Made by a program: the position numbers and the translations under genes. From Elusimicrobiota bacterium (lineage in GTDB: Bacteria; Elusimicrobiota; Elusimicrobia; UBA1565; UBA9628), in NCBI GenBank assembly GCA_016191335.1, contig JACPOW010000043.1:3704-67703 (forward strand): a stretch of 64,000 nucleotides of DNA, written 5' to 3'. Below, piece after piece: positions 26,570 to 59,119 of the stretch; within the stretch, counting starts at the first letter, position 1; every line of letters begins with the position of its first letter. The notes beneath the pieces were generated by a model. That model saw nothing but the letters and a program-made list of their open reading frames with translations. It did no database searches and had not been told where the DNA came from.

Positions 26570-28981
26570 CTACGGCGCGGCTTCCTCGCCGGCCTTGATG
26601 GACTCGAGTTTGAGGATCACGCGCTCGAAGGTGTCCTTGAAGCCGCCGGAGAACGGCTCGTCGATGACGCGCAGGGTGCCGAGGCGGTCGACGCGGTCCG
26701 CCGGGATCAGGCCCCGGCCCGGGGCCTCCGCGCGCAGGCGCTCGAGCTGGTCCGACGGGAGGACCTCCCCGGCGGCGAGCTTCGCGGCGAACTTCTTCTC
26801 CACGAGCCGCGCGGCCTCGGCCGCGTCCTTGCCCACGAGAAGGAACTCCTTGCCGCCCGCGCGCACGGGCTCCTCCACCGAGTAGCCGAGCTTGCGCAGG
26901 CGGTTGACCTCGACGCGCATGATCACGCCGAGGCGCTTGAGGTACCGGTCGCCCGCGTCGTGGCCGAGCACGTCGTTGACGGCCTTGAAGTTGCGCGCCG
27001 AGATCATCGCCGCCGCGCCCTTGCCGTCGTAGTCCGCCTCCCACTGCGGCCGCGCCATGTCGATCCACTCCGCGGTCCGCGTCAGCGTCAGCGGGTCCTT
27101 GAACACGGCCTCCAGGAACACCGCGTACTCCTTCTGCGTGAGCTTCTCCTTGAGCGCGCGGATCTCCGACACGCGGTCGGGCCGCGGCGCGGCCGGCGCG
27201 GCGTCCCGGGGCGCGACGCCCTGCGCCAGCGCGGAGAGCTCGCGCAGGCGCGTGAAGGTCAAGGTCCCGGGGACCTCGACGACCGCCTCCCCGCGCAGGC
27301 CCTCGGCCTTCGCTTTATTGAGAACCCCGTCGGCGGCCTTGAGCGCGCTCTCGAAGCCCCGCCCCTTCTCGGCCGCGATGCCGTAGGTGAAGTCTCCGAC
27401 CGGGCCGGTGCGGTTCATGCGGGCCATCGCCGCGTCGATCGCCTGCCTCTCCGGCGCGCCCGTCTCGCTGAGGACCTTCTCCGGCGGGAACGCCTCGCGC
27501 ATGCGGCGCGCGAACTCGATGATGTCGTTCATCGAGCCGAAGGCGACGATCTCCTCTCCTCCGAGGCGCGCCGCGCGCACGCCGGTCGCCTTGGCGAGGG
27601 CGTCGATCCTCGGCCCCGCGGAGGCGAGCATGCGATCCCCCATCTCCTTGCCCGCCACGGGCCCGTGCACGTCGGCCAGGCCCGCGTTGACCGCGCCGAA
27701 GTTGTTCATGTCGAGCATGGCCACCGTCGGCTCCGGCACGCCCGCCAGCAGCTCCTCCGCCTTCTCCATGATGAAGGCGCGGTTGGGCAGGCCCATCAGG
27801 CCGTCGGTGTAGAATATCTCCTCGGCCTTCTTGAACAGCGCCTCCTCGCCGCGGGATATCAGCGAGATCTCCATCTGCCGCAGCGGCGAGCGCTTGTCGG
27901 AGACGTTGCGGGAGGGCCCGTTCGTGGGGCTCTGGTCGAAGAAGCCGTCGGCGACGCCGCGGATGCGGATCGGGCGGTTGCGGATGTGGTCGAAGACGTC
28001 GACGGGCGTCCCCAGGATGGCCCCGGCATGAACCGAGAGCGCCCGGGCGTTCTTGATGGTCGGCCTCCAGCGCGGGTCGAGCCCGACCCTCGAATAAGTG
28101 CCGCTGTTGAAGTCGAGCCGCGGCCGTCCAGTGGCCGGGTCCACCAGGACCTCGCCGGCGAACAGCACCGGCCGCCCTCCGCCGAGCGCCGCGTGCTTGA
28201 CGCCCATCTCCCTGTCGTTGCCGGGCACGACGCGCCCGACCGTCATGCCGATCGTGCCGTCGGGGTTCTCGAAGATCACGTAGTTGTGCTTGACCCCGGG
28301 CTTCATCCGTTTCCAAGAGGCCGCGTCGGCCTCGAAGACGAGGCCGTGCTCCCGCGCGACCTGCATGATCTCGGGCGTGTAGATCGTGCCGGGCAGCAAT
28401 CCGGGGTCGAGCTTGACGCCCGCGCCGCGCCGCTCGAAGCCCGCCGGCCGGGCGACGGGGCCCGAGACCCCGGCCTCTCGGGCCGCGCTTTGGTCGAAGA
28501 GGGCCCGACCGGCGTCGCCTCCCGCCTCGGGCGAATCGTCCGACTTCGACGGGGCGGTCAGGACATGCCCGCCGATGACGCGGGGCTTGACCGGCGTTAA
28601 GGCGGAGCCCGGCAACGACGGGACCGCCGCCGCCGGCGTCCCCGGACGCGCGGCCTGCGGCCGGGCCTTGAGCGGCAAGGTCGAGGTCGGGCGTATGCCC
28701 GTCGCCGGGACGGCTCCCGGCCGGGCGACGGCGGCGTCGACGGCCGCGGGCTGGACGAGGTTCGGCGCCGGCGCCAGGACGTTCGCCAACGTCGGCGCGC
28801 CGGAGGCCGACAACGACGGCACCGTCAGCTGGACCGGGGCGGGAGCGCCGAGGGAGGACCCGATCGCGCCCGTCTGCGTACCGGGCGCGGCCTGGCCGGA
28901 TACGGGGCCTTCGATCTGTCCGGCGCGGACGGCGCAGGACAGGCCCAAAATCAGCAGGGCTCGGAGGGAGAGGGGCCTCAC
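26570..28981 (-). CDS. exported/anchored protein: signal peptide + Pro/Ala-rich leader + unknown domain + two GGDEF-like domains
   Basis: Start set to GTG 28981 (VRPLSLRALLILGLSCAVRAGQ), supported by TGTTATATT 6 nt upstream. First GGDEF-like domain: DGLMGLPNRAF...ARLGGEEIVAFG. Second, degenerate: ISARNFKAVNDVLGHDAGDRYL...RAGGKEFLLVG. Confidence 0.7.
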   Translation of the reverse strand: MRPLSLRALLILGLSCAVRAGQIEGPVSGQAAPGTQTGAIGSSLGAPAPVQLTVPSLSASGAPTLANVLAPAPNLVQPAAVDAAVARPGAVPATGIRPTSTLPLKARPQAARPGTPAAAVPSLPGSALTPVKPRVIGGHVLTAPSKSDDSPEAGGDAGRALFDQSAAREAGVSGPVARPAGFERRGAGVKLDPGLLPGTIYTPEIMQVAREHGLVFEADAASWKRMKPGVKHNYVIFENPDGTIGMTVGRVVPGNDREMGVKHAALGGGRPVLFAGEVLVDPATGRPRLDFNSGTYSRVGLDPRWRPTIKNARALSVHAGAILGTPVDVFDHIRNRPIRIRGVADGFFDQSPTNGPSRNVSDKRSPLRQMEISLISRGEEALFKKAEEIFYTDGLMGLPNRAFIMEKAEELLAGVPEPTVAMLDMNNFGAVNAGLADVHGPVAGKEMGDRMLASAGPRIDALAKATGVRAARLGGEEIVAFGSMNDIIEFARRMREAFPPEKVLSETGAPERQAIDAAMARMNRTGPVGDFTYGIAAEKGRGFESALKAADGVLNKAKAEGLRGEAVVEVPGTLTFTRLRELSALAQGVAPRDAAPAAPRPDRVSEIRALKEKLTQKEYAVFLEAVFKDPLTLTRTAEWIDMARPQWEADYDGKGAAAMISARNFKAVNDVLGHDAGDRYLKRLGVIMRVEVNRLRKLGYSVEEPVRAGGKEFLLVGKDAAEAARLVEKKFAAKLAAGEVLPSDQLERLRAEAPGRGLIPADRVDRLGTLRVIDEPFSGGFKDTFERVILKLESIKAGEEAAP

Positions 28982-29075: not shown

Positions 29076-29843
29076 ATGGACCTGAGCGCCGGCGCGACGA
29101 TCTTCCTGGGCGCCTGCGTCTTCTTCGCCGGGGTCGTGGACGCGCTGGCCGGCGGCGGCGGCCTCATCACCTTGCCCGCCTACCTCGCCGTCGGCCTCAA
29201 CCCGGCCCTGGTGCTCGGCACCAACAAGCTCAGCTCCTCCGTCGGCACCGTCGTCTCCACCTGGCGCTACCACAACGCGCTCAAGTTCTCCATCAAGGAC
29301 TTCCTCCCCGTCATCGCGGCCTCCATGGCCGGCTCCTGGCTCGGAGCGCGCGCCGCCATCCTCGTCGACCCGTCCTGGATCCGGCCGATGCTCCTCATGG
29401 CGCTGCCCGTCGTCGCTTGGCTGGTCTGGTCGAAAAAAGACTTCGGCTCCGTCGACGACAGCCACCATCTCTCCGCCGCCGAGCGCCGGCGCCGCGGCGT
29501 CCTGGTCGCCGCCCCCATCGGCGCCTACGACGGCTTCTTCGGCCCGGGCACCGGCACCTTCTTCGCCATCGCCTTCGCCCGCTGGGGCCGCCACGACCTA
29601 TTGGGCGCGACGGCGCGCGCGAAGATCCTCAACCTCGTCTCCAACCTCGGCGCTCTGGGCGCCTTCATCTGGGCCGGCCGCCTCGACTGGAAGATCGGCC
29701 TCTCGATGAGCCTCCTCTCCGTCGCCGGCCACTGGGTCGGCTCCCACCTCGGCGTCAAGAAAGGCGCCTCCGTGATCCGGCCCGTCGTGGCCCTCGTCTG
29801 CGCCGGCCTGTTCGCCAAGGTGCTCTTCGACGCCGTTCGTTGA
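29076..29843 (+). CDS. TauE/SafE (TSUP) family sulfite/organosulfonate exporter-like membrane protein
   Basis: 255 aa. VVDALAGGGGLITLPAYL and a repeated 4-TM architecture. Confidence 0.8.
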   Translation: MDLSAGATIFLGACVFFAGVVDALAGGGGLITLPAYLAVGLNPALVLGTNKLSSSVGTVVSTWRYHNALKFSIKDFLPVIAASMAGSWLGARAAILVDPSWIRPMLLMALPVVAWLVWSKKDFGSVDDSHHLSAAERRRRGVLVAAPIGAYDGFFGPGTGTFFAIAFARWGRHDLLGATARAKILNLVSNLGALGAFIWAGRLDWKIGLSMSLLSVAGHWVGSHLGVKKGASVIRPVVALVCAGLFAKVLFDAVR

Positions 29844-29855
29844 TATGATGTCCCC

Positions 29856-30944
29856 GTGAGCGAACGCCTGATCGCCGTCTACGAAGTCCCGGGTCCCGCG
29901 GCCGAGGCCGAGAAGACCGCGCGCGCGATCGCTTTTGAAGAAACCGTCGAGGTCCCTTTCGAGTTCCCCCTTCCCTCCCGTATCCGCGAAGGAATCGTCG
30001 GCCAGACGGGGACCCTCGCCCCCGTCGAGAACGGGCGCTTCCGCGTCGAGATCTCCTTCCCCGCCTCGCTCGCGGGCGGGCGCATCGGGGCGCTCCTCAA
30101 CCTCGTCTTCGGGAACGCCTCGATCTGGCCGGGCGTGCGCCTCGTCGACATCCGTTTTCCAGAATCTTTTCTCTCGGCGTTCTCCGGCCCGAACTACGGC
30201 GCGGCCGGGCTCCGGGCCCTCCTCGGGGTCCAGGGCCGTCCATTGCTCGCCACGGCGCTCAAGCCGATGGGCTCGACCGAGGCCGAGCTCGCCGAGTCCG
30301 CCGCCGCCTTCGCGCGCGGCGGCGGGGACATCGTCAAGGACGACCAGAACATCGTCGACGCGACCTTCGCCGCGTTCCGCTCCCGCGTCTCGCGCATCGC
30401 CTCAGCCGTGTCCGGGACGAAGTGCCTGTACTTCCCCCACCTGTCGGGGCCTCAGGAAGAGCTCGAGGAGCGCCTGCGCTTCGTCCTCGGCCTCGGACTC
30501 AAGGGCGTCCTCATCTGCCCCGCCATCGTCGGCCTCGACGCGATGCGCGCCCTGGCCGACCGGCGCAAGGCCGTGTTTATGGCCCACCCCGCCTACTCCG
30601 GAGCCTTCTACGCCGAGCGCTCCCACGGCATCGAGCACTCGTTGTATCTGGGGACTTTGATGCGCCTGGCCGGGGCCGACATCACCGTCTTCCCCAACGC
30701 CGGGGGCCGCTTCGCCTTCACGCCCGCCGAGTGCCGCGCCATCGCCGAGCGGGGCCGCGCGCCGCTGGGCGGCCTGGCGCCGATCTTCCCGGCTCCGGGC
30801 GGCGGGATGAACCTGGACAACACCGCCGCGATGGCGGCCGATTTCGGGACCGACGCGATCTGGCTCGTCGGCGGACGCCTGCTGATGCATCCCGGCGGGC
30901 CGGAAGCCGGGGCGCGCGCCTTCCGCGAGAAGATGCCCTCCTAG
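29856..30944 (+). CDS. RuBisCO large-subunit-like protein (form IV RLP), short and divergent
   Basis: 362 aa. NLVFGN, ATALKPMGS (K175 equivalent kept, K177 position is Met), GGGDIVKDDQN (carbamyl-Lys and Asp kept, Glu204 position is Gln), PAPGGGM, GGRLLMHP. Confidence 0.75.
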   Translation: MSERLIAVYEVPGPAAEAEKTARAIAFEETVEVPFEFPLPSRIREGIVGQTGTLAPVENGRFRVEISFPASLAGGRIGALLNLVFGNASIWPGVRLVDIRFPESFLSAFSGPNYGAAGLRALLGVQGRPLLATALKPMGSTEAELAESAAAFARGGGDIVKDDQNIVDATFAAFRSRVSRIASAVSGTKCLYFPHLSGPQEELEERLRFVLGLGLKGVLICPAIVGLDAMRALADRRKAVFMAHPAYSGAFYAERSHGIEHSLYLGTLMRLAGADITVFPNAGGRFAFTPAECRAIAERGRAPLGGLAPIFPAPGGGMNLDNTAAMAADFGTDAIWLVGGRLLMHPGGPEAGARAFREKMPS

Positions 30945-39434: not shown

Positions 39435-40181
39435 ATGAGGCGCCTCCTCCTTCTGCCCCTCGCCCTCGCCCTCGCGCTCGCCGCGTCCGCCCGCGCGGCC
39501 GACACCATCCTCGTCGTCGGGGATTCCCACACGGCCGGGGCCTTCGGCGGGGCGCTCGACGACGCGCTGCGCGCCGCGCCCGGCAACCGCGTCGCGACCT
39601 ACGGGGTCTGCTCGGCGCGCCCTCAATCCTATTTCGACGAGACGGAGCACGGCTGCGGCCGGCGGTTCCAGGACTTCACGAAGAAGGCGCCCGCGAAATG
39701 GCTCGGCGGGCGCGTCTACCGCAAGACCCGTCCCGACGGGAAGGGCGGCACGCGCGAGGTCGAGTTCGTGAAGACGCCCGCGCTGGCGCAGCTCCTCGAC
39801 GACCACGCCCCCACCGTGACGGTCGTGGCGCTCGGCTCGAACGTCCCCACCTCGGGCGCGAGCGTGCGCCGGACGCTCAAGCTCATCCACGACGCCGGCA
39901 GCGCCTGCGTCTGGATCGGGCCCCCGAACATGCGCAATCCCTCTCAGAAGGAGATGGACGCCGTCTACGGGACGCTGGCCGAGAACGGGGTCACGCCAGC
40001 GGCGACCTTCGAGGCGTCGCGCACGGACTCCTGCCGCCTCATCGACAGCCGCGGCTTCCCCGGCCTGCGCTATCCCGCGACGGGAGGCGACGGCACGCAT
40101 TACGGCGGGGCGCTCGCCCCCATCGGCATCCAGTGGGGCAAGGACGCCGCCGCGGCCGTGCTGGCCGCGTTCAAGCCCTAG
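39435..40181 (+). CDS. secreted SGNH/GDSL-type hydrolase
   Basis: 248 aa. Signal peptide LLLLPLALALALAASARA. Block I ILVVGDSHTAG. The stop shares a CTAG with the convergent gene stop. Confidence 0.7.
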   Translation: MRRLLLLPLALALALAASARAADTILVVGDSHTAGAFGGALDDALRAAPGNRVATYGVCSARPQSYFDETEHGCGRRFQDFTKKAPAKWLGGRVYRKTRPDGKGGTREVEFVKTPALAQLLDDHAPTVTVVALGSNVPTSGASVRRTLKLIHDAGSACVWIGPPNMRNPSQKEMDAVYGTLAENGVTPAATFEASRTDSCRLIDSRGFPGLRYPATGGDGTHYGGALAPIGIQWGKDAAAAVLAAFKP

Positions 40182-43018
40182 CGCAGGGCTTCGTTGAGGA
40201 CGCGCGCCGCGTCCCAGTCCACCGCTCGGCCGGGCGCGAGGAACAGCTCCAGGCCGCCGGGGGTCCGTCCCGTGTTCTGGTCGGCGTTCGAGACCAGCCC
40301 GCGCTGGGACGGGTCGGGGTGCGAGGAGTCGCCGAGTATGCGGAGCGTGTCGTTGGCCGCCTCGCGCAGGCGGTCCCAGGCGTTGTATAAGCGGCGCACC
40401 GTCTCGGGGCTAAGCTCCCCGTTCGCGGGCACCGCCGCGGCCTCGGCCGCGAAGACGAGCTTGGCGACCTGGAGCCGGTCGATCAAGGAGCGGATCGGGC
40501 GCACGTTGCCCGCGGTGTAGGCGCTCACGGGGCCGGGGTTCTCGGTCCACCTCGCCCACTCCGCGTTCTTGGCGTCGAACGCGGCGCCGGAGGACGCCAA
40601 CCAGTTGCGGGCCCCGTCGGCGAACAGGCGCGCGCTCTGCGACGGCGTCGGCGGCGCGGGGGGCGTCTCCGGCGGCAGGCCGCGGCGGTCGAAGGCGCCG
40701 AGCAGCGGCTCGAAGGCGTTGACCAGCCGGTTGATCTCGGGCTCCTGATAGCGGCGGGCTTTGGCGCGGGGCACGACCGAGTCGAGGACGGCAAGCATGG
40801 CCTCGAGCTGGCGCTTCGTCTCCGGCTCGAGCTTCGCGCCGGGCCGCTCGAGGGACTCGACGCCGTCGTAATACGCGGTCGAGAGGGCATAGGCGGCCTC
40901 GCGCCGGGGCTTGGGGGCCGAGAGGTACGCGCGCACGAGGGCCATGGCGCGCTCCCGCAGGACGGCGTCCTTCTCCCCCTTCAGATGCTCGGCGGCGAAC
41001 GCCTCGAGCTCCGCGTCCGGCTTCGGGGCGGCGGGCAGGAAGCCCGCGAGGATCTCCTCGGCCGTGTCCACGACGGTGAACAGGGCCTCGGGCGCCTCCT
41101 TCAGCAGGCCGTCGGCGAACAGGCGCTGGTACTGCTGGGAGATGCCGCCGAAGAAATCCCGGCCGACGAGGATGATGCGCTTGAGCGGGGCCTTGCCGCG
41201 GTAGGCGTTCATGGCCACGAGGATCGCGGCCTCCTGGATGCTGCCGGCGCTGCCGGGGAAGATCAGGAAATTGTCGGAGACCTTCGCGAACGCCTCCACG
41301 CGCCGGGGCTCGGAGTCGGCGATGCCGATGGCCCGCGCGTCGGAGAGGTTCTCGTCGCCCCACCCCGGACGGACGGCGAGGACCAGGTTCTCGCCGCGAC
41401 GGGGCGCGGCGTTGGCGTTCTCGGCGGCGGCGGCGTACGCGGCGCCCATGACCCCGGCGTTGCCGGCCCCGGTGAGGACGTTGTAGCCGTGACGGATCAG
41501 CGCCCCGGACACCTCGCCCGACAGGGCGACCTGCTCCTTGATGGGGTCGACCGACTTCGAGCTGCCGAGGATGGTGACGGTGCGCGCGCGGCTCTCCGGC
41601 CCGGTGTAGCGCTCGTCGAACTCCGGGATCTCGGCGAAGGACGCGGGGCCGCGGAGCGCCGCGAAATCGAGCGTCACGATCACGGGGAAATGGTCGGAGG
41701 GGTTGCGCGAGCGCTCCGCGTAGGTCGCGGGGATGGCGCGCACGCTGCCGTCCTCGTTCTTGTAGCGGTACGCCTCCGCCTTGCGGACCGCGCCGCGCAG
41801 GGCCTTGGAGACGAGGACCGCGTCCATCTGTCCGAAGTGCGCGGGCGCGCCCTGGGGGTGGAAGGTGTGCGTGATGCGGTCCTTCTCCGACGGCGGGTTC
41901 GGCGACGCGTCGAAGCTGTCGACGAGGCCCGCGGCCTCGAACAGCGGGCGGAACTCCGCGTCCTTGCCCACCTCGCCGTTGAAGTCGCCCGCGAGCATGA
42001 TCGGGGTGTCGGCGCCGAACTCGGCGCGGTAGCGCGCGATGATCTCGGCCGAGCGCTGAACCTGCGCGCCGCGCAGGATGCTGGAGCCGGGGTCGCCGCC
42101 GTCGCGGTCGCGCTTGGACTTGTAGTGCGTGCCGAACAGGACGAACAGCGGCTGGGCCTTGCCCGGGACGCGCACGACGAGCGAGGTCAGGTCCCGGGAG
42201 AACAAGGTCCGCGGCCCGCCGCCGAGCACGGGGTCGACCCAGGTCTCGTCCTTGTGGGAGCGGTGCTCGACGAGGAACGGCAGGTCCTTCTTCACAAGGA
42301 AGGCCACGTCGATGCCGCGTTCGTCGTTGCCCTCGATGAGGTGGACCGAGTATTTCCCGTCGAGGAAGCGCTCGTTGAAGTCGCGCAGGGCGGCGATGTT
42401 CTCGACCTCCTCGAGGGTCACGATGTCGAGGTCGTTCTCGAGGATGACCTGGCCCTGCTCGCGCAGGGACCGGTCCTCCTTGGGACGGGCGTCGGAGATC
42501 TTCTTGAGCTTGCCCGGGTTCTCCGGGTCCGGCACGTGCTTGCCGACGTTCTCGAAGAGGTTGAGGACGTTGTAGGAGCCCATCTTGAGTTCCTTGATGG
42601 ACTCGAGCGAGCGGACGGGGGACGCGGCCGAGGCGGCGGGACCCACGGGCTCGCCGACGGCGGCGGCGCCGTCGAAGAGCCCGGTCAGCGCGGCCGGGAT
42701 CGCGCGCAGGCCCTCGCCGAAGGTCTTCACCGCGGAGCGCAGAGGCTCCATCGCCCTCGCGCCCCGGACGGGGGCGGGCGCCGGCCGGACGGCGACGGGG
42801 ACGGCGGGCGCGGCGAGGACGGGGACCAAAGACGGCGCGAGCGAAGGCGCCAGCCCCGGCGCGAGAGCGGGGGCCGAGAGGCCGGCGGAGAGCGCCGGCG
42901 CCGAGAAGGACACGACTCCGGGGGCGCCCGTGAGCGTGGGAACCGAGGTCTTGAGCGAGACGACCTGGGCGTTCAGCGGGGACGCGAGGACCAGGGCCGC
43001 CAGCATGGCTCGAAGCAT
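40178..43018 (-). CDS. exported fusion protein: endonuclease/exonuclease/phosphatase (EEP) domain + LOG/TIGR00730-like domain + unknown helical C-terminal domain
   Basis: 946 aa. Signal MLRAMLAALVLASPLNAQ. APSL-repeat leader. EEP blocks (MGSYNVLNLF, DIVTLEEV, MLAGDFN, NPSDHFPV). LOG-like blocks (TILGSSKS, VLTGAGNAGVMGA, LIFPGSAGSIQE). Confidence 0.8.
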   Translation of the reverse strand: MLRAMLAALVLASPLNAQVVSLKTSVPTLTGAPGVVSFSAPALSAGLSAPALAPGLAPSLAPSLVPVLAAPAVPVAVRPAPAPVRGARAMEPLRSAVKTFGEGLRAIPAALTGLFDGAAAVGEPVGPAASAASPVRSLESIKELKMGSYNVLNLFENVGKHVPDPENPGKLKKISDARPKEDRSLREQGQVILENDLDIVTLEEVENIAALRDFNERFLDGKYSVHLIEGNDERGIDVAFLVKKDLPFLVEHRSHKDETWVDPVLGGGPRTLFSRDLTSLVVRVPGKAQPLFVLFGTHYKSKRDRDGGDPGSSILRGAQVQRSAEIIARYRAEFGADTPIMLAGDFNGEVGKDAEFRPLFEAAGLVDSFDASPNPPSEKDRITHTFHPQGAPAHFGQMDAVLVSKALRGAVRKAEAYRYKNEDGSVRAIPATYAERSRNPSDHFPVIVTLDFAALRGPASFAEIPEFDERYTGPESRARTVTILGSSKSVDPIKEQVALSGEVSGALIRHGYNVLTGAGNAGVMGAAYAAAAENANAAPRRGENLVLAVRPGWGDENLSDARAIGIADSEPRRVEAFAKVSDNFLIFPGSAGSIQEAAILVAMNAYRGKAPLKRIILVGRDFFGGISQQYQRLFADGLLKEAPEALFTVVDTAEEILAGFLPAAPKPDAELEAFAAEHLKGEKDAVLRERAMALVRAYLSAPKPRREAAYALSTAYYDGVESLERPGAKLEPETKRQLEAMLAVLDSVVPRAKARRYQEPEINRLVNAFEPLLGAFDRRGLPPETPPAPPTPSQSARLFADGARNWLASSGAAFDAKNAEWARWTENPGPVSAYTAGNVRPIRSLIDRLQVAKLVFAAEAAAVPANGELSPETVRRLYNAWDRLREAANDTLRILGDSSHPDPSQRGLVSNADQNTGRTPGGLELFLAPGRAVDWDAARVLNEALR

Positions 43019-43024
43019 GACCCT

Positions 43025-43053
43025 ATTATAAGGAGGCCGCCCGATCCCTCCAA
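43025..43053 (-). promoter_or_regulatory. promoter TTGGAG-17-TATAAT, 6 nt upstream of EEP-LOG ATG 43018
   Basis: Read from the sequence. Confidence 0.5.
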
Positions 43054-43114
43054 GGGGCTTAAGACCTTGTCATTTTAGGTCTTTCAGCCCTAGGTTCTCG
43101 ACGGAGGTTAAGCT

Positions 43115-43120
43115 TAAAAT
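43115..43120 (+). promoter_or_regulatory. -10 box TAAAAT, 8 nt upstream of Aas-like ATG 43129
   Basis: Read from the sequence. An inverted repeat AAGACCT-9-AGGTCTT (43061-43083) lies just upstream. Confidence 0.4.
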
Positions 43121-43128
43121 AGGCCTCC

Positions 43129-45780
43129 ATGATTTATCGAATCCTCCTTTTAATAGCCGTTCCGGTTACCAGCGTCGCGGGCGTCGTGCGCATGCCCGCC
43201 CTCCAAAGCGGCCCCTCGCTGACGGCGCCCGCGGCGGCCCCCTCGCTGAGCGTTCCCTCGCTCGCCGCGCCTGTCCTGACCGTCCCCTCGCTGACCGCCT
43301 CGCCCCTGGCCGCCGCTCCGTCTATCGCGCCCGCGCCCGTCTCGGCTATCGCGACCGTCCGGGCCGCCGCCGCCGCCCTCCCGGATGCCCGGGTCCCCGC
43401 CGCCTCGGCCAAGGCCGCCGTCGGCGCGTCGTTCGACGCCTCCGTCGTCCGCAAGCCCGAGGCCGAGGCCGTCGCCGGCTCCTTCTCCGTCTCTCCCGCG
43501 CTGTCCGCCCCCTCCGCCGGCGAGACGCCCGGCCCGTCGTTCGTCCCCTCAGCGTCCGAGCCCGCCGACCGCCCGCTGTTCTTCCGCCGCTACGGGCTCC
43601 TGCGCCTCGCCGTGCGGCCGTTCGTGCGCCTGTTCTACAGGACCGCGATCTCCGGCCTCGAGAACCTTCCGAACGGCCCGGCCGTGATCGTGCCCAACCA
43701 CATCTCCTACGTCGACGCGATCCTGATCTCCTTCGCCGCGGACCGGCCGATGCGCTTCATGATGAAGCGCCAGATCTTCGAGAAGATGCCTCGTTTGATG
43801 GGCGCGCTCGGGGCGATCCCGGTCTCCTCCCAGGACTCGCCGAAGGACATCGAGGCCTCCCTCGAGGCCGCGCGCCAGGCGATCCGCGCGGGGCAGAGCG
43901 TCGTGATCTTCCCCGAGGGCCAGCTGACGCTGACGGGCAACATGACCGGCTTCCGGCGCGGCTTCGAGCGCATCGTGGCCGGCGCGCCCGCGCCCGTGAT
44001 CCCGGCCTACCTCGACGGCCTGTGGGGCTCCGCGTTCTCGATGCAGAAGGGCCCGTCGCTGTGGAGCCGCCTCAAGGAGCTGCCGCGCCCGGTGTCGGTG
44101 CGCTTCGGCCCGGCGCTCGCCGAGCCGACCGCGCAGGCCGCGCGCCTGGCCGTCACCGAGCTCGGCGCGGCCTCGATGGAGGCGCGCGTGCGCTCCCGCC
44201 GCAAGCCGCTGGCGCGCGAGTTCTTCGCGAGCGCGATGAACTCCTTCGGCAAGCCCGCGATCGCCGACTCGATGGGGGCGGACCTCACCTACGGCAAGGC
44301 GCTCACCGGAGCGCTCCTGCTCGGCCGCGCGCTCGACGCGAGGCTCGACGGCGGGGCCAACGCCGCCGTGCTGCTGCCCCCGTCGGCCGGCGGAGCGCTC
44401 GCCAACCTGGCGCTGGCCTCCGTCGGCCGCGTGCCGGTGAACCTGAACTACACCGCGAGCCGCGAGGCGGTGGACCACGCCCTCAAGAGCGCGGACATCG
44501 GAAGCGTCGTGACCTCGAAGAAGTTCGTCGAGGCCCTGAAGACCGAGAAGGGCTTCGAGCTGCCGGCCGGGAAGAACATCATCTACTTAGAGGACGTCGC
44601 CCCGACCATCCCTCAGTGGAAGAAGACCGCGACCTTCCTCCTGCTCAAGGTCCTGCCCGCGTCCTGGTCGGAGCGTGTGTTCCTCTCCTTGGCGTCCAAG
44701 GACCTCGACGACACCGCGACCATCCTGTTCACCAGCGGCTCGAGCGCTTTGCCCAAGGGCGTCGTGCTGACCCACCTGAACGTCCTGGCCAACGTCGAGA
44801 TGGTGCGCGAGCTCCTGCCCTGGGCGAAGAGCGACGCGATGCTGGGGGTGCTGCCCTTCTTCCACTCCTTCGGCTTCACCGTGACTTTGTGGATGCCTCT
44901 CGTGTCCGGCATGTCGGCGGCCTACCACGTCCACCCGATGCAGGCCGAGCAGATCGGCAAGCTCGCGGCGAGGTTCAAGTCCACCTTGCTGCTGGCCACG
45001 CCCGCCTTCCTGCAGCGCTACTCTCAGAAGATCCCGGCCGAGGCCTTCAAGCACCTGCGCCTCGTGATCGCCGGCGCCGAGAAGCTGCGCGACTCGGTGG
45101 CCGACGAGTTCGCGGCGAAGTTCGGCGTGCGCCCTTACGAGGGCTACGGCGCGACCGAGCTGTCCCCGGTCGCCTCCGCCGGCACCCCGGACGCGGGCAA
45201 ACAGAAAGGCTCCAAGCCCGGGTCCGTCGGCCGCGCCCTGCCGGGCACGGCGGTCAAGGCCGTGGACCTCAAGACCGGCAAGCCCGTCCCCGACGGCGAG
45301 GTCGGCATGCTCATGGTCAAGGGGCCGCACGTCATGAAGGGCTACCTCGGCCAGCCCGAGAAGACGGCCGAGGTGCTCCAGGACGGCTGGTATGTCACCG
45401 GCGACCTCGGGACCATCGACCGCGACGGGTTCATCTCCATCACCGGCCGCCTGTCGCGCTTCTCGAAGCTCGCGGGCGAGATGGTCTCCCACACCGCCGT
45501 CGAGGAGAAGCTGCAGCAGGCCGCGGGCCTGGCCGACATGACCTTCGTGGTCACCGGCGTCAAGGACGAGAAGCGCGGCGAGAGGCTCGTCGTCCTGTAC
45601 GCGGGCTGGGACGGCGACATCGACGCCCTGCTCGGGAAGATGCGCGCCCTGGGCGTGCCGAACCTGTGGCTGCCGGCGAAGTCGTCCTTCCACAAGGTCG
45701 ACTCGATCCCGCTGCTCGGCACCGGCAAGCTCGACCTCAAGGCGGTCAACGAGCTCGCCGCGAAGCTCGCGGGCGCCTAG
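43129..45780 (+). CDS. aas: bifunctional lysophospholipid acyltransferase / acyl-[ACP] synthetase (Aas-like) with N-terminal signal + Pro/Ala/Ser-rich leader
   Basis: 883 aa. PlsC motifs VPNHISYVDA and VIFPEGQLT. AMP-binding FTSGSSALPKGVVLTH. About 150-aa leader containing VLTVPSLTAS. Confidence 0.8.
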   Translation: MIYRILLLIAVPVTSVAGVVRMPALQSGPSLTAPAAAPSLSVPSLAAPVLTVPSLTASPLAAAPSIAPAPVSAIATVRAAAAALPDARVPAASAKAAVGASFDASVVRKPEAEAVAGSFSVSPALSAPSAGETPGPSFVPSASEPADRPLFFRRYGLLRLAVRPFVRLFYRTAISGLENLPNGPAVIVPNHISYVDAILISFAADRPMRFMMKRQIFEKMPRLMGALGAIPVSSQDSPKDIEASLEAARQAIRAGQSVVIFPEGQLTLTGNMTGFRRGFERIVAGAPAPVIPAYLDGLWGSAFSMQKGPSLWSRLKELPRPVSVRFGPALAEPTAQAARLAVTELGAASMEARVRSRRKPLAREFFASAMNSFGKPAIADSMGADLTYGKALTGALLLGRALDARLDGGANAAVLLPPSAGGALANLALASVGRVPVNLNYTASREAVDHALKSADIGSVVTSKKFVEALKTEKGFELPAGKNIIYLEDVAPTIPQWKKTATFLLLKVLPASWSERVFLSLASKDLDDTATILFTSGSSALPKGVVLTHLNVLANVEMVRELLPWAKSDAMLGVLPFFHSFGFTVTLWMPLVSGMSAAYHVHPMQAEQIGKLAARFKSTLLLATPAFLQRYSQKIPAEAFKHLRLVIAGAEKLRDSVADEFAAKFGVRPYEGYGATELSPVASAGTPDAGKQKGSKPGSVGRALPGTAVKAVDLKTGKPVPDGEVGMLMVKGPHVMKGYLGQPEKTAEVLQDGWYVTGDLGTIDRDGFISITGRLSRFSKLAGEMVSHTAVEEKLQQAAGLADMTFVVTGVKDEKRGERLVVLYAGWDGDIDALLGKMRALGVPNLWLPAKSSFHKVDSIPLLGTGKLDLKAVNELAAKLAGA

Positions 45781-57414: not shown

Positions 57415-58539
57415 ATGAAATCGAGACGATCGGCGTTGGCATTCCTCTGCGCCTTCTCCTTGGGCATTCCCGGACCCGTCCAAGCGGGCCCCTCCGAGAT
57501 CTCCGATAAATTGGAGAAGCTGGCGCAAAGCCTCGTCTCGGGATATCAAAAGACGGGGACAGGAGGCCGGGAATCCCTCGCAGTATTCCGATTCAACACC
57601 AATGACAGACTGGCGAAAGAGCGCACGGGCTTCGCCGTCGCGGAACTCCTGACTCATCAACTCGTGACGGCTCCCGCCTTCACCGTCGTCGAAAGGACCG
57701 AGCTCGAACGCATCCTGACCGAACAGCGGCTGCAGGCGGCAGCGGCGATCGACCCCGACAGCGCGGTCAAAGTCGGCAAGCTCCTCGGCGCGCGCCTCCT
57801 CGTCCTGGGAAGCGTCGAAAAAGTGGGCGGGAAGTACTCCGTGAACGCCCGCATCGTTGAAACCGAAACGGGCCGGGTCCTGAGCACCGGCTATGAGGAG
57901 CTCCCCGCGAGACTCTTCGAAGAGGAAGCCAAGCCGTATCTGGCCCTGGTCCCCGAACGCCAGGCGATCGGGTTCTACCTCCTTTACAACTATCGGCGCA
58001 ACGCGAACCGCCTCCCCAGCCAGTCGCACCAGCAATCGGTCGGCTGCGTGACGCCCGGCGCCTGTCCGGTTTCGATCGCGCCGCAGGCATTCTCGATGGG
58101 CATGATCGGCGGAGGTGTTCGCTACAGTCCTACTTCACGTTGGCTCATCGACGCGAGCGTCTCGGCGCTCGCCGGCGGCGCGAGATTCGCTTCGACCAGC
58201 AACGCCGCCGCGTTCTCCGGAGAACTCCAGAGCGGCGATGTCATCCAGATTCGAGCGACGATCAACCGCGTCCTTCCCATCCGCGGCGCCGTCCGGGGCA
58301 TGGTCGGAGCGGGCCTCAGCAGCTATCAGATCTCGTCGAACAACCTCGAGTTCAAGGCCGCCGTGGTCCCCTCGATCCGAGGCGGCATCGAGTACAAGCC
58401 GCAGCCGCGGCTCGGCCTCGGCTTGTTCGTGAATTATGACTTTCTCAATACGAAGGGGATCGACCGGACGCTCCCGGGGTCCGGCGTCCTCGAATTGAAC
58501 CGGCTGTCGTTCGAGCCGACGGTCGCGGTCTATTTCTAG
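57415..58539 (+). CDS. outer-membrane protein: CsgG/LpoB-like periplasmic domain fused to a C-terminal beta-barrel
   Basis: C-terminal 374 aa of listed ORF 56818..58539. Signal LAFLCAFSLGIPGPVQA. LAVFRFNTND...VVERTELERILTEQRLQ...GKLLGARLLVLGSVEKVGGKYSVNARIVETETGRVL. Alternating-strand C-terminus ending VAVYF. Confidence 0.65.
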   Translation: MKSRRSALAFLCAFSLGIPGPVQAGPSEISDKLEKLAQSLVSGYQKTGTGGRESLAVFRFNTNDRLAKERTGFAVAELLTHQLVTAPAFTVVERTELERILTEQRLQAAAAIDPDSAVKVGKLLGARLLVLGSVEKVGGKYSVNARIVETETGRVLSTGYEELPARLFEEEAKPYLALVPERQAIGFYLLYNYRRNANRLPSQSHQQSVGCVTPGACPVSIAPQAFSMGMIGGGVRYSPTSRWLIDASVSALAGGARFASTSNAAAFSGELQSGDVIQIRATINRVLPIRGAVRGMVGAGLSSYQISSNNLEFKAAVVPSIRGGIEYKPQPRLGLGLFVNYDFLNTKGIDRTLPGSGVLELNRLSFEPTVAVYF

Positions 58540-58540
58540 C

Positions 58541-59119
58541 ATGCCGAAACGAATCTTCCTCGCCGCCGCCGTTCTCGCGATGACCGCCTGTCACGCGTCG
58601 AAGGTCCCCGAGAAACCCCTCCTCAAGCGCGATGCCTTCCCCGGCGGGAAGATCGAGGTTTCGACCATCGAGGCCCCCGAGCGGCATCAATCCCCCATCG
58701 TCCTCAGCATCCTTCCGCTCCAGCACAACGGCTCGGATAAGGCCCTGGATTCGAGGGGCGTCGCCCTCGCGGATGTGATCGCGGCGAGATTGGCCCCCGA
58801 CCGGCACTTCAAGCTGGTCGAACGCCAACGGATCGAGGACATATTCAAGGAGCTTCAATTGGGCGACGTAGGCCCGGTGGACCAGAAGACCGCCGTCAGG
58901 ATCGGCGGAATGCTGGGCGCCAACGTGATCGCCCTCGGGAGCTTCTCGGTCCTGGGCGGCTCGCCCATCGTCGCCATGCGCCTGGTCAAGGTGGAAACGG
59001 GCGAAGTCGTGGGCGGCGTCACGGAGCGAGGAGACGATGCCGCTCAACTCGACCGCCTCGCCGAGAAAGCGGCGACGCGTTTGGGCGACGCCCTGTCGCA
59101 TCCCAAACCTCAGCCGTAG
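58541..59119 (+). CDS. lipoprotein with CsgG/LpoB-like domain (paralog of the preceding N-domain)
   Basis: 192 aa. Lipobox LAMTAC. LSILPLQHNG...LVERQRIEDIFKELQLG...GGMLGANVIALGSFSVLGGSPIVAMRLVKVETGEVV. Confidence 0.65.
   Translation: MPKRIFLAAAVLAMTACHASKVPEKPLLKRDAFPGGKIEVSTIEAPERHQSPIVLSILPLQHNGSDKALDSRGVALADVIAARLAPDRHFKLVERQRIEDIFKELQLGDVGPVDQKTAVRIGGMLGANVIALGSFSVLGGSPIVAMRLVKVETGEVVGGVTERGDDAAQLDRLAEKAATRLGDALSHPKPQP

Follow-up and report, generated by a model that had tools for sequence, protein, structure and literature searches.

A putative three-part N-terminal leader on cysteine-depleted enzymes of Elusimicrobiota

Exported enzymes with nucleotide cofactors are known, for example the periplasmic ATP-dependent DNA ligase LigE and the NADP-containing glucose-fructose oxidoreductase of Zymomonas, in which the cofactor is pre-loaded or tightly bound. 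We know of no supply of ATP, ACP/CoA or NAD available in the bacterial periplasm. Two-partner secretion (with its TPS domain) and curli secretion (with the CsgA N22 segment for CsgG) combine a Sec signal, an N-terminal targeting segment and a Cys-free cargo that is unfolded in the periplasm. ZipA and microsomal P450 proteins have anchors of at least about 20 residues, flanked by a basic cluster on the side of the cytoplasm, and a Pro-rich tether; N-out anchors, ZipA among them, depend on basic residues clustered behind the helix. In the LplT-Aas system, an MFS flippase is fused to or partnered with an acyltransferase (PRK08633), and Aas acts on the cytoplasmic membrane surface (PMC11416262).

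The window analysed here (64,000 nt of contig JACPOW010000043.1 from an Elusimicrobiota bacterium; all coordinates refer to this stretch) encodes three large leader-bearing proteins. We hypothesize, with a probability of roughly 0.5, that they represent a class of exported proteins, specific to one clade within Elusimicrobiota, that share a three-part N-terminal leader. The signal peptide (part 1) would engage Sec. A disordered uncharged spacer of about 50–100 residues, built of degenerate [AVLI]-P-x-[LS] units (part 2), would be threaded first, so that translocation could begin ahead of synthesis or folding of the large enzyme domain. Part 3 is an Ala-rich stretch closed by a short FD box; this box might be recognised or processed in a later step, such as sorting, anchoring or passage of the outer membrane. 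The Cys-free cargo could then cross without being trapped by wrong disulfides in the envelope. The features are as follows.

26570..28981, minus strand: tandem-GGDEF protein, 803 aa from GTG 28981 (PF00990 twice)
28922..28981, minus strand: GGDEF signal-peptide-like N-terminus, residues 1–20; core ALLILGLSCAV, 11 residues between R7 and R19
28577..28921, minus strand: GGDEF Pro/Ala-rich spacer, residues 21–135; 57 uncharged residues between E24 and D82; contains QLTVPSLSAS
28481..28504, minus strand: GGDEF FD box ALFDQSAA, residues 160–167; kept as ILFDQGAA in orthologue P0126
40178..43018, minus strand: EEP + LOG/SLOG protein (EEP-LOG), 946 aa (PF03372, PF03641, PF18306)
42968..43018, minus strand: EEP-LOG signal-peptide-like N-terminus, residues 1–17, MLRAMLAALVLASPLNA followed by QVV; an Arg in the n-region, then a short hydrophobic core, a helix-breaking Pro and small residues at -3 and -1
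42761..42967, minus strand: EEP-LOG uncharged P-x-L spacer, residues ~18–86; 54 charge-free residues between K23 and R78
42656..42682, minus strand: EEP-LOG FD box GLFDGAAAV, residues 113–121; the sole Asp of the 130-residue extension adjoins one of its three Phe
43019..43128: 110-nt intergenic region from which the EEP-LOG and Aas-like genes diverge
43129..45780, plus strand: Aas-like protein, PlsC-type acyltransferase + AMP-binding (acyltransferase/acyl-ACP-synthetase type), 883 aa (PF01553 + PF00501)
43129..43179, plus strand: Aas signal-peptide-like N-terminus, residues 1–17, MIYRILLLIAVPVTSVA followed by GVV
43180..43359, plus strand: Aas uncharged P-x-L spacer, residues 18–77; decayed 15-nt tandem repeat inside, at 43239..43297
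43360..43596, plus strand: Aas Ala-rich segment with FD box (ASFDASV, residues 100–106, 43426..43446) and linker to the catalytic domain

The three open reading frames and their domains had been described in the original prediction, and Pfam matches agree with it. The motifs quoted there lie where it placed them (QLTVPSLSAS at residues 51–60 of the GGDEF protein, VLTVPSLTAS at 49–58 of the Aas-like protein, TSVPTLTGAP at 24–33 of EEP-LOG), and two of the three genes do diverge from a single 110-nt region. Long spurious open frames are typical of high-GC genomes, and one database orthologue (P0029) is called from a downstream start, as would be expected if the leaders were untranslated artefacts upstream of the true starts. 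We regard this as very improbable. The GC3 of the leaders is 0.78–0.96 with GC1 exceeding GC2, they contain hardly any Arg, the residue that prevails in random high-GC translation, and orthologues agree in ATG position, signal peptide and motifs. The codon-position GC and the conserved orthologous leaders thus show the leaders to be translated. The GTG start of the GGDEF protein coincides with the ATG at which orthologues P0126 and P0121 begin. The gene call of P0029 is truncated, with a full leader in frame upstream, and it was rejected as a leaderless orthologue. DNA alignment found no similarity of the three leaders to each other, and a recent duplication or cassette was therefore rejected as their origin. 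Among the ORFs passing a coding-frame filter (GC3 and GC1 > GC2), only these three contain a 40-residue stretch that includes no more than one charged residue and seven or more Pro.

All three proteins have a positive n-region, with R or K within the first 2–8 residues; K/R precedes the hydrophobic run in 39 of 42 Aas orthologues. The hydrophobic cores span 8–16 residues (ALLILGLSCAV, 11; ILLLIAVPV.., 16, between R4 and R21; MLAALVLA), and the c-regions (SVA before G, LNA before Q, VRA before G) contain a Pro/Gly/Ser breaker and small residues at -3/-1. All 17 Aas orthologues inspected by eye end in [ASVL]-x-A, and the EEP-LOG N-terminus is conserved in its orthologue L081. The N-termini resemble those of clearly periplasmic neighbours, namely an alpha-2-macroglobulin, a trypsin-like protease and an SGNH hydrolase. 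Judged by these n-, h- and c-region features, the first part of the leader appears to be an ordinary Sec-type, signal-peptidase-I-type signal peptide. The GGDEF core, with 11 residues between two Arg, is too short to span the membrane, and none of the three proteins has a second hydrophobic segment, the N-terminal peak being the sole one. A Tat signal (S/T-R-R-x-F-L-K) and a lipoprotein signal (lipobox L-x-x-C) were rejected, as the orthologues contain neither a conserved RR motif nor a Cys ending the h-region; a microcompartment encapsulation peptide was rejected because the N-termini are hydrophobic and not amphipathic. The net charge of the first 18 mature residues (-3 to +3 by hand count) was indecisive and was dropped as a discriminator. 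An A[QG]V motif at the junction occurs in 18 of 42 Aas orthologues and 5 of 13 other leaders, against 0 of 22 plain signal peptides, which is no more than suggestive.

The signal peptide is followed by about 55 uncharged Pro/Ala/Ser/Leu residues in all three proteins. The original prediction had singled out a VPSL motif in this region. Pooled counts, compared with 5000 residue shuffles of each leader, were 4 versus 0.07 expected for VPSL, 11 versus 0.69 (~16-fold) for [AV]P[SAT]L and 17 versus 4.7 for P-x-L, all three patterns having been picked after seeing the data. The shared leader is thus real, conserved and beyond what composition would give, and VPSL is indeed enriched; however, it appears to be one variant of a degenerate repeat of about five residues within the P-x-L spacer, and not a discrete sorting motif. 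Spacer prolines P23, P38, P59 and P64 of Aas are at least 90% conserved across 42 orthologues with identity down to 43%, and the spacer evolves faster than the catalytic part. AlphaFold2, run with the 42-sequence alignment, predicts the catalytic body confidently and residues 10–138 with pLDDT < 50, including weak helices at 74–81 and 91–101; the spacer is thus predicted to be disordered. The leader architecture is kept from 54% to 71% GC, with Ser-rich units in a lower-GC orthologue.

A sharper and more discrete shared element, missed by the original prediction, is the FD box ([LSAF]-F-D-[GAQ]-small), located about 100–165 residues from the N-terminus and 20–50 residues before the first folded domain. 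FD[GAQ], a motif defined after seeing the data, is found in the N-terminal extension of seven of eight cargo families (product of chance probabilities 6e-11), at the same relative position in unrelated families, and Phe and Asp are very rare in these extensions. A metagenome scan for TTCGACGGSKCSGCSGCC (encoding FDG[SA]AA) returned at least 120 matches, and among the matches listed none lies behind a signal peptide or a P-x-L spacer. An FFAT-like or beta-clamp-binding motif was dropped as an explanation of the FD box, being a resemblance only.

The leader might also be an ordinary signal peptide with a functionally neutral linker, in which high GC and replication slippage produced the P-x-L units and the FD motif as by-products with no sorting role. 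This would agree with the decayed tandem repeat and faster evolution of the Aas spacer, with VPSLS-type arrays that also occur in unrelated proteins elsewhere, and with the failure of leader profiles to find a family beyond orthologues. Nevertheless, we consider such an origin improbable, since the architecture persists at 54% GC and with Ser-rich units at lower GC, the Pro positions are conserved across the orthologues, the FD box recurs in place despite the rarity of its residues, and plain-signal-peptide proteins of the same genomes are without any such linker. Pro conservation, P-x-L enrichment, FD-box recurrence and persistence at 54% GC together suggest that the leader is under constraint.

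As the original prediction had supposed, the leader does not correspond to a described signal: nothing matching it was found in Pfam, NCBIfam or the literature searched. Literature on an Elusimicrobial leader, signal peptides or beta-oxidation yielded nothing relevant; signal peptides go unmentioned in the main Elusimicrobia genomics paper. The leader profile proposed as a search tool did not perform as hoped. An 11-leader alignment gave two weak matches among 5.8 billion proteins, and a 9-leader profile gave seven among 1.84 billion representatives, two of them GGDEF orthologues (P0126 and the 76-aa fragment P0121) and five unrelated repeat or low-complexity proteins. Its shortness and low complexity put the leader beyond HMM detection, so the leader-only searches gave no cargo census.

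The cargo itself was surveyed over about 200 kb of sequence, in which the leader architecture spans at least eight families. In related genomes the same leader precedes an esterase, which lacks the FD box, and four proteins that have it: an acyl-CoA dehydrogenase (ACAD), a fused thiolase/hydratase/dehydrogenase, a GH13 amylase and an unknown protein. The unknown protein (761/809 aa) has no Pfam or PDB relative. In one operon (L207), leader-bearing ACAD, FadAB, unknown protein and Aas are joined with an SSF-family symporter, 447 nt downstream of fixC/fixX-like ETF-quinone oxidoreductase genes without a signal peptide. The fused FadA/FadB retains strong thiolase, hydratase and NAD-binding domain matches, and ACAD relatives at 48% identity lack a signal peptide.

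The Aas-like protein is 100% identical to an Elusimicrobia MAG protein. It matches NCBIfam PRK08633 with E = 3e-261 and a score of 869.6, below the cut-off of 1221; the alignment starts at model position 414, the MFS part (1–413) is missing, and PF07690 gave no match. In Aas, the leader stands where homologues from other phyla have an N-terminal MFS (LplT) flippase domain, which it has replaced. A scan of the genome collection found 78 MFS-fused homologues from other phyla and only two Elusimicrobial loci. The leader was rejected as a remnant of the MFS domain, being of low complexity with a single hydrophobic segment. The acyltransferase and AMP-binding halves are homologous to those of LplT-Aas and all catalytic motifs are present. 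The HX4D acyltransferase motif, the ATP-binding/adenylation motifs (P-loop, YGxTE) and the catalytic Lys are invariant in leader-type orthologues (N190/H191/D196, T535–K543, E671–E677, D759, R774 and K867 in 42 sequences). The differences from LplT-Aas are the exchange of the MFS domain for the leader and a catalytic part without its cysteines.

This loss of cysteine extends to the whole leader-bearing set. With protein classes assigned by hand from N-termini, the 17 leader proteins (15,244 aa) contain 11 Cys (0.07%), compared to 1.19% in cytoplasmic proteins of the same loci (Fisher p = 9e-42) and 0.57% in plain-signal-peptide proteins (p = 2e-14). Seven of the 11 are probably thiolase catalytic cysteines, judging by their unaligned position in the domain. 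The Aas-like protein has no Cys, and the EEP-LOG and GGDEF proteins have none after the signal peptide. The 725 catalytic residues of Aas include 0–1 Cys in 42 leader-type orthologues versus 4–14 (mean 8.5) in 65 MFS-fused homologues; the count is 6 in an MFS-fused Aas from Elusimicrobia and 7–11 in stand-alone leaderless Aas proteins. Cys exclusion is documented for exported proteins, those with export signals being depleted relative to cytoplasmic proteins of the same organism (Daniels et al., PMC2823432). The depletion here, however, goes about 8-fold beyond ordinary signal-peptide proteins of the same loci and affects enzyme families that have 4–14 Cys elsewhere. As an export signature, it leads us to favour true export over a cytoplasm-facing tether.

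Export is further backed by some of the cargo being of exoenzyme type, namely the ExeM/NucH-like EEP domain, the GH13 amylase and the esterase, as judged from domain matches. The original prediction had pointed to a localisation paradox, because the domains behind the leader use cytoplasmic nucleotides. This paradox is real and wider than it stated, as the acyl-CoA dehydrogenase and the thiolase/hydratase/dehydrogenase fusion also carry the leader. Among the three proteins of the window, Aas needs ATP and an acyl carrier; the EEP-LOG cargo is not clearly paradoxical, since its EEP domain most resembles, by a weak NCBIfam match, the extracellular ExeM/NucH endonucleases. Its LOG part has PGSAGSIQE and GAGNAGVMG in place of the PGGxGTxxE and GGGxGxMG of LOG/PpnN, with TIGR00730 at 33.8 (cut-off 96), PF03641 at 29.6, just above its cut-off of 27, and LOG matches in PDB. 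The GGDEF protein has only weak PDB matches, with E of about 1e-2 to 1e-5. In its domain 1 (LDMNNF...RLGGEEI) the metal Asp, the Asn and GGEE are retained, with Phe replaced by Ile. Domain 2 (ISARNF...AGGKEF) has lost the Asp and the acidic third residue and appears catalytically degenerate, so that the predicted need for GTP holds at most for domain 1.

The original prediction had offered a cytoplasm-facing tether as a way out of the paradox. In such an arrangement, the N-terminus would dip into or span the inner membrane without export, and the spacer would be a leash holding lipid and signalling enzymes near transporters and electron acceptors. Several observations count against export or agree with a tether. 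The cargo retains invariant catalytic motifs in Aas and strong domain matches in FadA/FadB, for chemistries that require ATP, ACP/CoA and NAD, and here the paradox stands. In other phyla the Aas module follows an MFS domain of 12 helices, and the cytoplasmic membrane surface is where Aas acts (PMC11416262). The L207 operon ties its leader proteins to a symporter and follows fixCX genes without signal peptides, leaderless ACAD relatives exist, and in several leaders the two flanks of the hydrophobic core carry about equal charge. We nevertheless find a tether rather unlikely. The short cores, basic n-regions and A-x-A-type ends are those of N-in cleavable signals and not of N-out anchors; at most one basic residue follows the core, and then about 55 uncharged ones; there is no second hydrophobic segment as a way back. 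Moreover, a tether gives no reason for the near-total Cys loss, which tracks leader presence exactly, and typical exoenzymes bear the same leader. Signal-peptide-length segments, the missing second segment and Cys exclusion in the cargo thus disfavour this escape route.

A bolder form of the export reading, possible but in our view doubtful, is that these uncultured Elusimicrobia carry out lysophospholipid re-acylation, beta-oxidation and GGDEF signalling beyond the cytoplasmic membrane, with enzymes that depend on ATP, CoA, NAD and GTP, the leader being an undescribed sorting signal for this relocated, cysteine-purged set. The periplasm would then have to be supplied with cofactors, e.g., from the host cytosol, or the enzymes would be delivered into another cell.

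Among the known systems, the leader resembles in layout Sec/SPase I proteins with disordered Pro/Ala-rich linkers (linkers behind the lipid anchor of lipoproteins, the Pro-rich region with which TonB spans the periplasm), which likewise have a basic n-region, a short core, an A-x-A-type end and a low-complexity segment before the folded domain. Here, however, the segment is charge-free, P-x-L-built and followed by a conserved FD box, and it sits on enzymes that are cytoplasmic elsewhere, with neither a lipobox Cys nor a twin-arginine motif. LigE and glucose-fructose oxidoreductase share the signal peptide on a nucleotide-cofactor enzyme, but Aas, the beta-oxidation enzymes and diguanylate cyclase need continuous turnover of ATP, CoA, NAD or GTP. 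ZipA and microsomal P450 share an N-terminal hydrophobic segment, a long Pro-rich flexible region and a globular domain using cytoplasmic partners; the segment here has signal-peptide length and a basic N-side, and the cargo is Cys-free. Two-partner secretion and curli follow the same logic of leader plus Cys-free cargo. However, the cargo here is a globular enzyme of 750–1600 aa, no transporter is linked to the leader genes, and Pfam/NCBIfam searches (E <= 0.01–0.1) found no TPS (haemagglutination activity) domain, curlin repeats or PF00805 A(D/N)LXX repeats on the three proteins. The window also encodes a CsgG-like lipoprotein.

If export is true, lipid and nucleotide enzymes that depend on energy have been relocated to the far side of the inner membrane in a free-living or host-associated bacterial clade. 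This would contradict the working rule of a periplasm without ATP, CoA or NAD. It would imply that cofactors come from a source not yet recognised, that the organisms lead an undescribed intracellular or predatory life, or that secretion follows a new route marked by a recognisable N-terminal signal. A tether, if true, would amount to a novel and simple design for membrane-bound metabolons, with a signal-peptide-like anchor replacing a 12-helix transporter domain, and signal-peptide predictors would mislocalise a whole protein class in MAG annotations. On either reading, a signal peptide, an uncharged P-x-L spacer, an FD box and a Cys-free cargo form a searchable signature.

The divergent pairing of the EEP and Aas genes is kept in L081 and in the contig of P0015. 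The 43019..43128 region between them contains one sigma-70-like match, on the minus strand.

Three enzymes encoded in the window (GC content ~70%) share an N-terminal leader consisting of a predicted signal peptide, an uncharged spacer with P-x-L units and an Ala-rich stretch. Their gene models were checked by translation and by Pfam/NCBIfam scans:

40178..43018, minus strand: EEP + LOG/SLOG protein (EEP-LOG), 946 aa
43129..45780, plus strand: Aas-like protein, PlsC-type acyltransferase + AMP-binding, 883 aa
26570..28981, minus strand: tandem GGDEF protein with two GGDEF domains, 803 aa

The divergent orientation of the EEP-LOG and Aas genes around a 110-nt spacer, noted in the original prediction, is borne out by the sequence, and the pairing is kept in relatives. 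A 74.5-kb contig of an Elusimicrobia MAG encodes an "AMP-binding protein" that matches the Aas-like protein with 100% identity.

The leaders read as coding (GC3 0.78–0.96, Arg nearly missing), and the start, signal peptide and motifs are kept in orthologues; mis-called starts are thus essentially excluded. Every VPSL-type motif quoted in the original prediction was found at the residues given, and the motif does exceed chance: residue shuffles yielded 0.69 expected occurrences of [AV]P[SAT]L against 11 observed, and 4.7 of P-x-L against 17, both patterns being picked post hoc. The units recur with a period of about five residues; a decayed 15-nt tandem repeat lies in the Aas spacer. No DNA similarity was detected among the three leaders, which therefore are not recent copies. 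Of the ORFs passing a coding-frame filter (GC3/GC1>GC2), none but these three has 40 residues in a row with seven or more Pro and no more than one charge. Pfam, NCBIfam and the literature searched yielded no match to the leader.

Profile matches to the leader included two unrelated database proteins with long perfect [VI]P[SAG]L[ST] pentapeptide arrays, P0128 (568 aa; presumably a phage tail-fibre or collar protein, by its look) and P0124 (214 aa; array located after a membrane segment). In other settings, then, the pentapeptide itself may serve a structural purpose.

The leader N-termini comprise a basic n-region, a hydrophobic core of 8–16 residues (11 in the GGDEF protein, between R7 and R19), a Pro/Ser breaker and small residues at −3/−1. 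Judged from sequence, they are built like a cleavable Sec signal peptide and unlike an N-out anchor, and neighbours in related loci that are clearly periplasmic (alpha-2-macroglobulin, trypsin-like protease, SGNH hydrolase) have matching N-termini. Each window protein has a single hydrophobic segment, located N-terminally and followed by 54–57 residues without charge; a spacer of this kind is absent from plain signal-peptide proteins of related loci. One serine/threonine kinase starts with a signal-like sequence and has another membrane helix ahead of the kinase domain, an ordinary topology.

The predicted cleavage site is often directly followed by [QG]-V-[VIT], then a basic residue and Pro (window 43129..43200 and related loci L086 and L210), as in A|GVVRMP, A|QVVSLK, A|QVVGAAR and A|QVIRLP. 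The frequency of A[QG]V is 18/42 among Aas orthologues, 5/13 among other leader proteins and 0/22 among plain signal peptides. By inspection of N-termini, 11 of the 14 genes in the 22.9-kb locus L086 have a signal-peptide-like start, an unusually dense cluster; the frequency in the window looks normal (roughly 9 of ~40 ORFs passing the coding-frame filter).

Other cargo proteins were collected from ~200 kb of related loci. Locus L086 (GC 71%) contains four consecutive genes with the same kind of leader:

gene 1: acyl-CoA dehydrogenase, 890 aa
gene 2: single-chain thiolase + enoyl-CoA hydratase + 3-hydroxyacyl-CoA dehydrogenase, 1442 aa
gene 3: unknown protein, 761 aa
gene 4: Aas

A second locus, L207 (GC 54%), has this same operon, which there also includes genes for an SSF symporter and a membrane protein of 65 aa; upstream of it lie fixC/fixX-like genes whose products lack signal peptides. 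Leaders are also present on an esterase (L084) and a GH13 amylase (L082), both adjoining Aas. Leader-only database searches and a metagenome motif scan returned no further leader cargo among the matches listed.

The leader-bearing FadAB fusion (L086:3295-7623, L207:12721-17493) places FadA before FadB in one polypeptide of 1442–1590 aa; such a single-chain trifunctional beta-oxidation enzyme is unusual. Close to their C-terminus, acyl-CoA dehydrogenases of the leader type contain an additional hydrophobic insertion, EFAMRFGLSALFLGLIGFI... (L086:626-3298, residues ~726–744), which by eye seems to be missing in the leaderless 48%-identical relatives P0134 and P0135. It may represent an added membrane-interacting hairpin.

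After the spacer, the Ala-rich stretch terminates in [LSAF]-F-D-[GAQ]-small, hereafter the FD box:

Aas: SFDAS
EEP: LFDGAAA / LFDGSAA
GGDEF: LFDQSAA
acyl-CoA dehydrogenase: FFDG / RFDG
FadAB fusion: SFDGT / EFDGI
unknown protein: IFDAR
amylase: AFDGAAA

FD[GAQ] lies within the N-terminal extension in 7/8 cargo families, though Phe and Asp are scarce there; the chance probabilities multiply to 6e-11, for a motif defined post hoc. That the spacer is a neutral linker seems improbable to us: the FD box speaks against this reading, as do the conservation of the leader at 54% GC and an orthologue of lower GC whose units are rich in Ser.

The EEP-LOG C-terminal tail (residues ~660–946, ~290 residues; 40178..41040, minus strand) has only a weak DUF7185 match and varies among orthologues: the protein has 754 aa in locus L081, and the contig of P0015 encodes an EEP-only version of 448 aa. 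At L002:8932-9348 (minus strand), the EEP gene upstream of Aas is seemingly reduced to a 139-aa ORF retaining the FD-box segment "LLGLFDGAAAAFDAKN", and may be a decayed or truncated copy.

Aas homologues of ~1140 aa from Acidobacteriota, Geobacter, Verrucomicrobiota and also one Elusimicrobial lineage carry an N-terminal MFS (LplT) domain. The leader stands in its place in 42 Elusimicrobial orthologues (identity down to 43%). Their alignment (n = 42) shows no variation in HX4D, the P-loop, YGxTE or the catalytic Lys, and conservation of several prolines of the leader reaches 90% or more. Divergence is quicker in the leader than in the catalytic part, but the leader's plan is retained. With this alignment, AlphaFold2 modelled the enzyme body confidently and residues 10–138 at pLDDT <50.

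After the signal peptide, the three window proteins contain no Cys (p = 7e-14; 2542 residues at the local cytoplasmic rate). Leader proteins of the Elusimicrobial loci contain 0.07% Cys (11 in 15,244 residues), and 7 of these 11 lie in the thiolase domain, where by position, rather than by alignment, they are probably the catalytic cysteines. With protein classes hand-assigned from N-termini, Cys elsewhere in the loci amounts to 1.19% in cytoplasmic, 0.56% in membrane and 0.57% in plain-signal-peptide proteins (Fisher p = 9e-42 for leader versus cytoplasmic proteins, 2e-14 versus plain-signal-peptide proteins). Within the 725 catalytic residues of Aas, 42 leader-type orthologues have 0–1 Cys versus 4–14 in 65 MFS-fused homologues; the Elusimicrobial MFS-fused protein has 6 and stand-alone leaderless ones 7–11. 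Exported proteins are known to exclude cysteine (PMC2823432).

The reading we prefer, with a probability of about 0.5, is that these proteins form a clade-specific class that is truly exported, because two independent sequence signatures point to export: signal-peptide anatomy without a return segment, and a cysteine purge tracking the leader. The spacer would then serve as an unfolded lead-in, with the FD box as a candidate recognition or processing site. One strong biochemical prior favours the cytoplasm, namely the conserved cofactor-dependent motifs, operon partners without signal peptides and the site of Aas, which acts at the cytoplasmic membrane surface (PMC11416262). A leader acting as a cytoplasm-facing tether would account for both the cofactors and the MFS replacement; we consider it less likely than export, as it leaves the cysteine loss and signal-peptide geometry unexplained. 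Under the export reading, the paradox of cytoplasmic nucleotides raised in the original prediction is softer for the GGDEF protein, since its domain 2 is degenerate and domain 1 divergent, and softest for EEP-LOG.

Between the leader and the first GGDEF domain of the tandem GGDEF protein lies a conserved region of ~180 residues (~200–385) with no match in Pfam, NCBIfam or PDB. Near its gene, a TauE/SafE-family membrane protein is directly followed by a RuBisCO-large-chain-like protein (362 aa, PF00016 partial; 29076..30944, plus strand), and this pair also adjoins the GGDEF gene in a relative. CsgG channels are exporters of unfolded, Cys-free substrates bearing an N-terminal signal; at 58499..59119 (plus strand), the window encodes a small lipoprotein with a match to the CsgG family (PF03783, E = 1e-8) and a weaker LpoB match.
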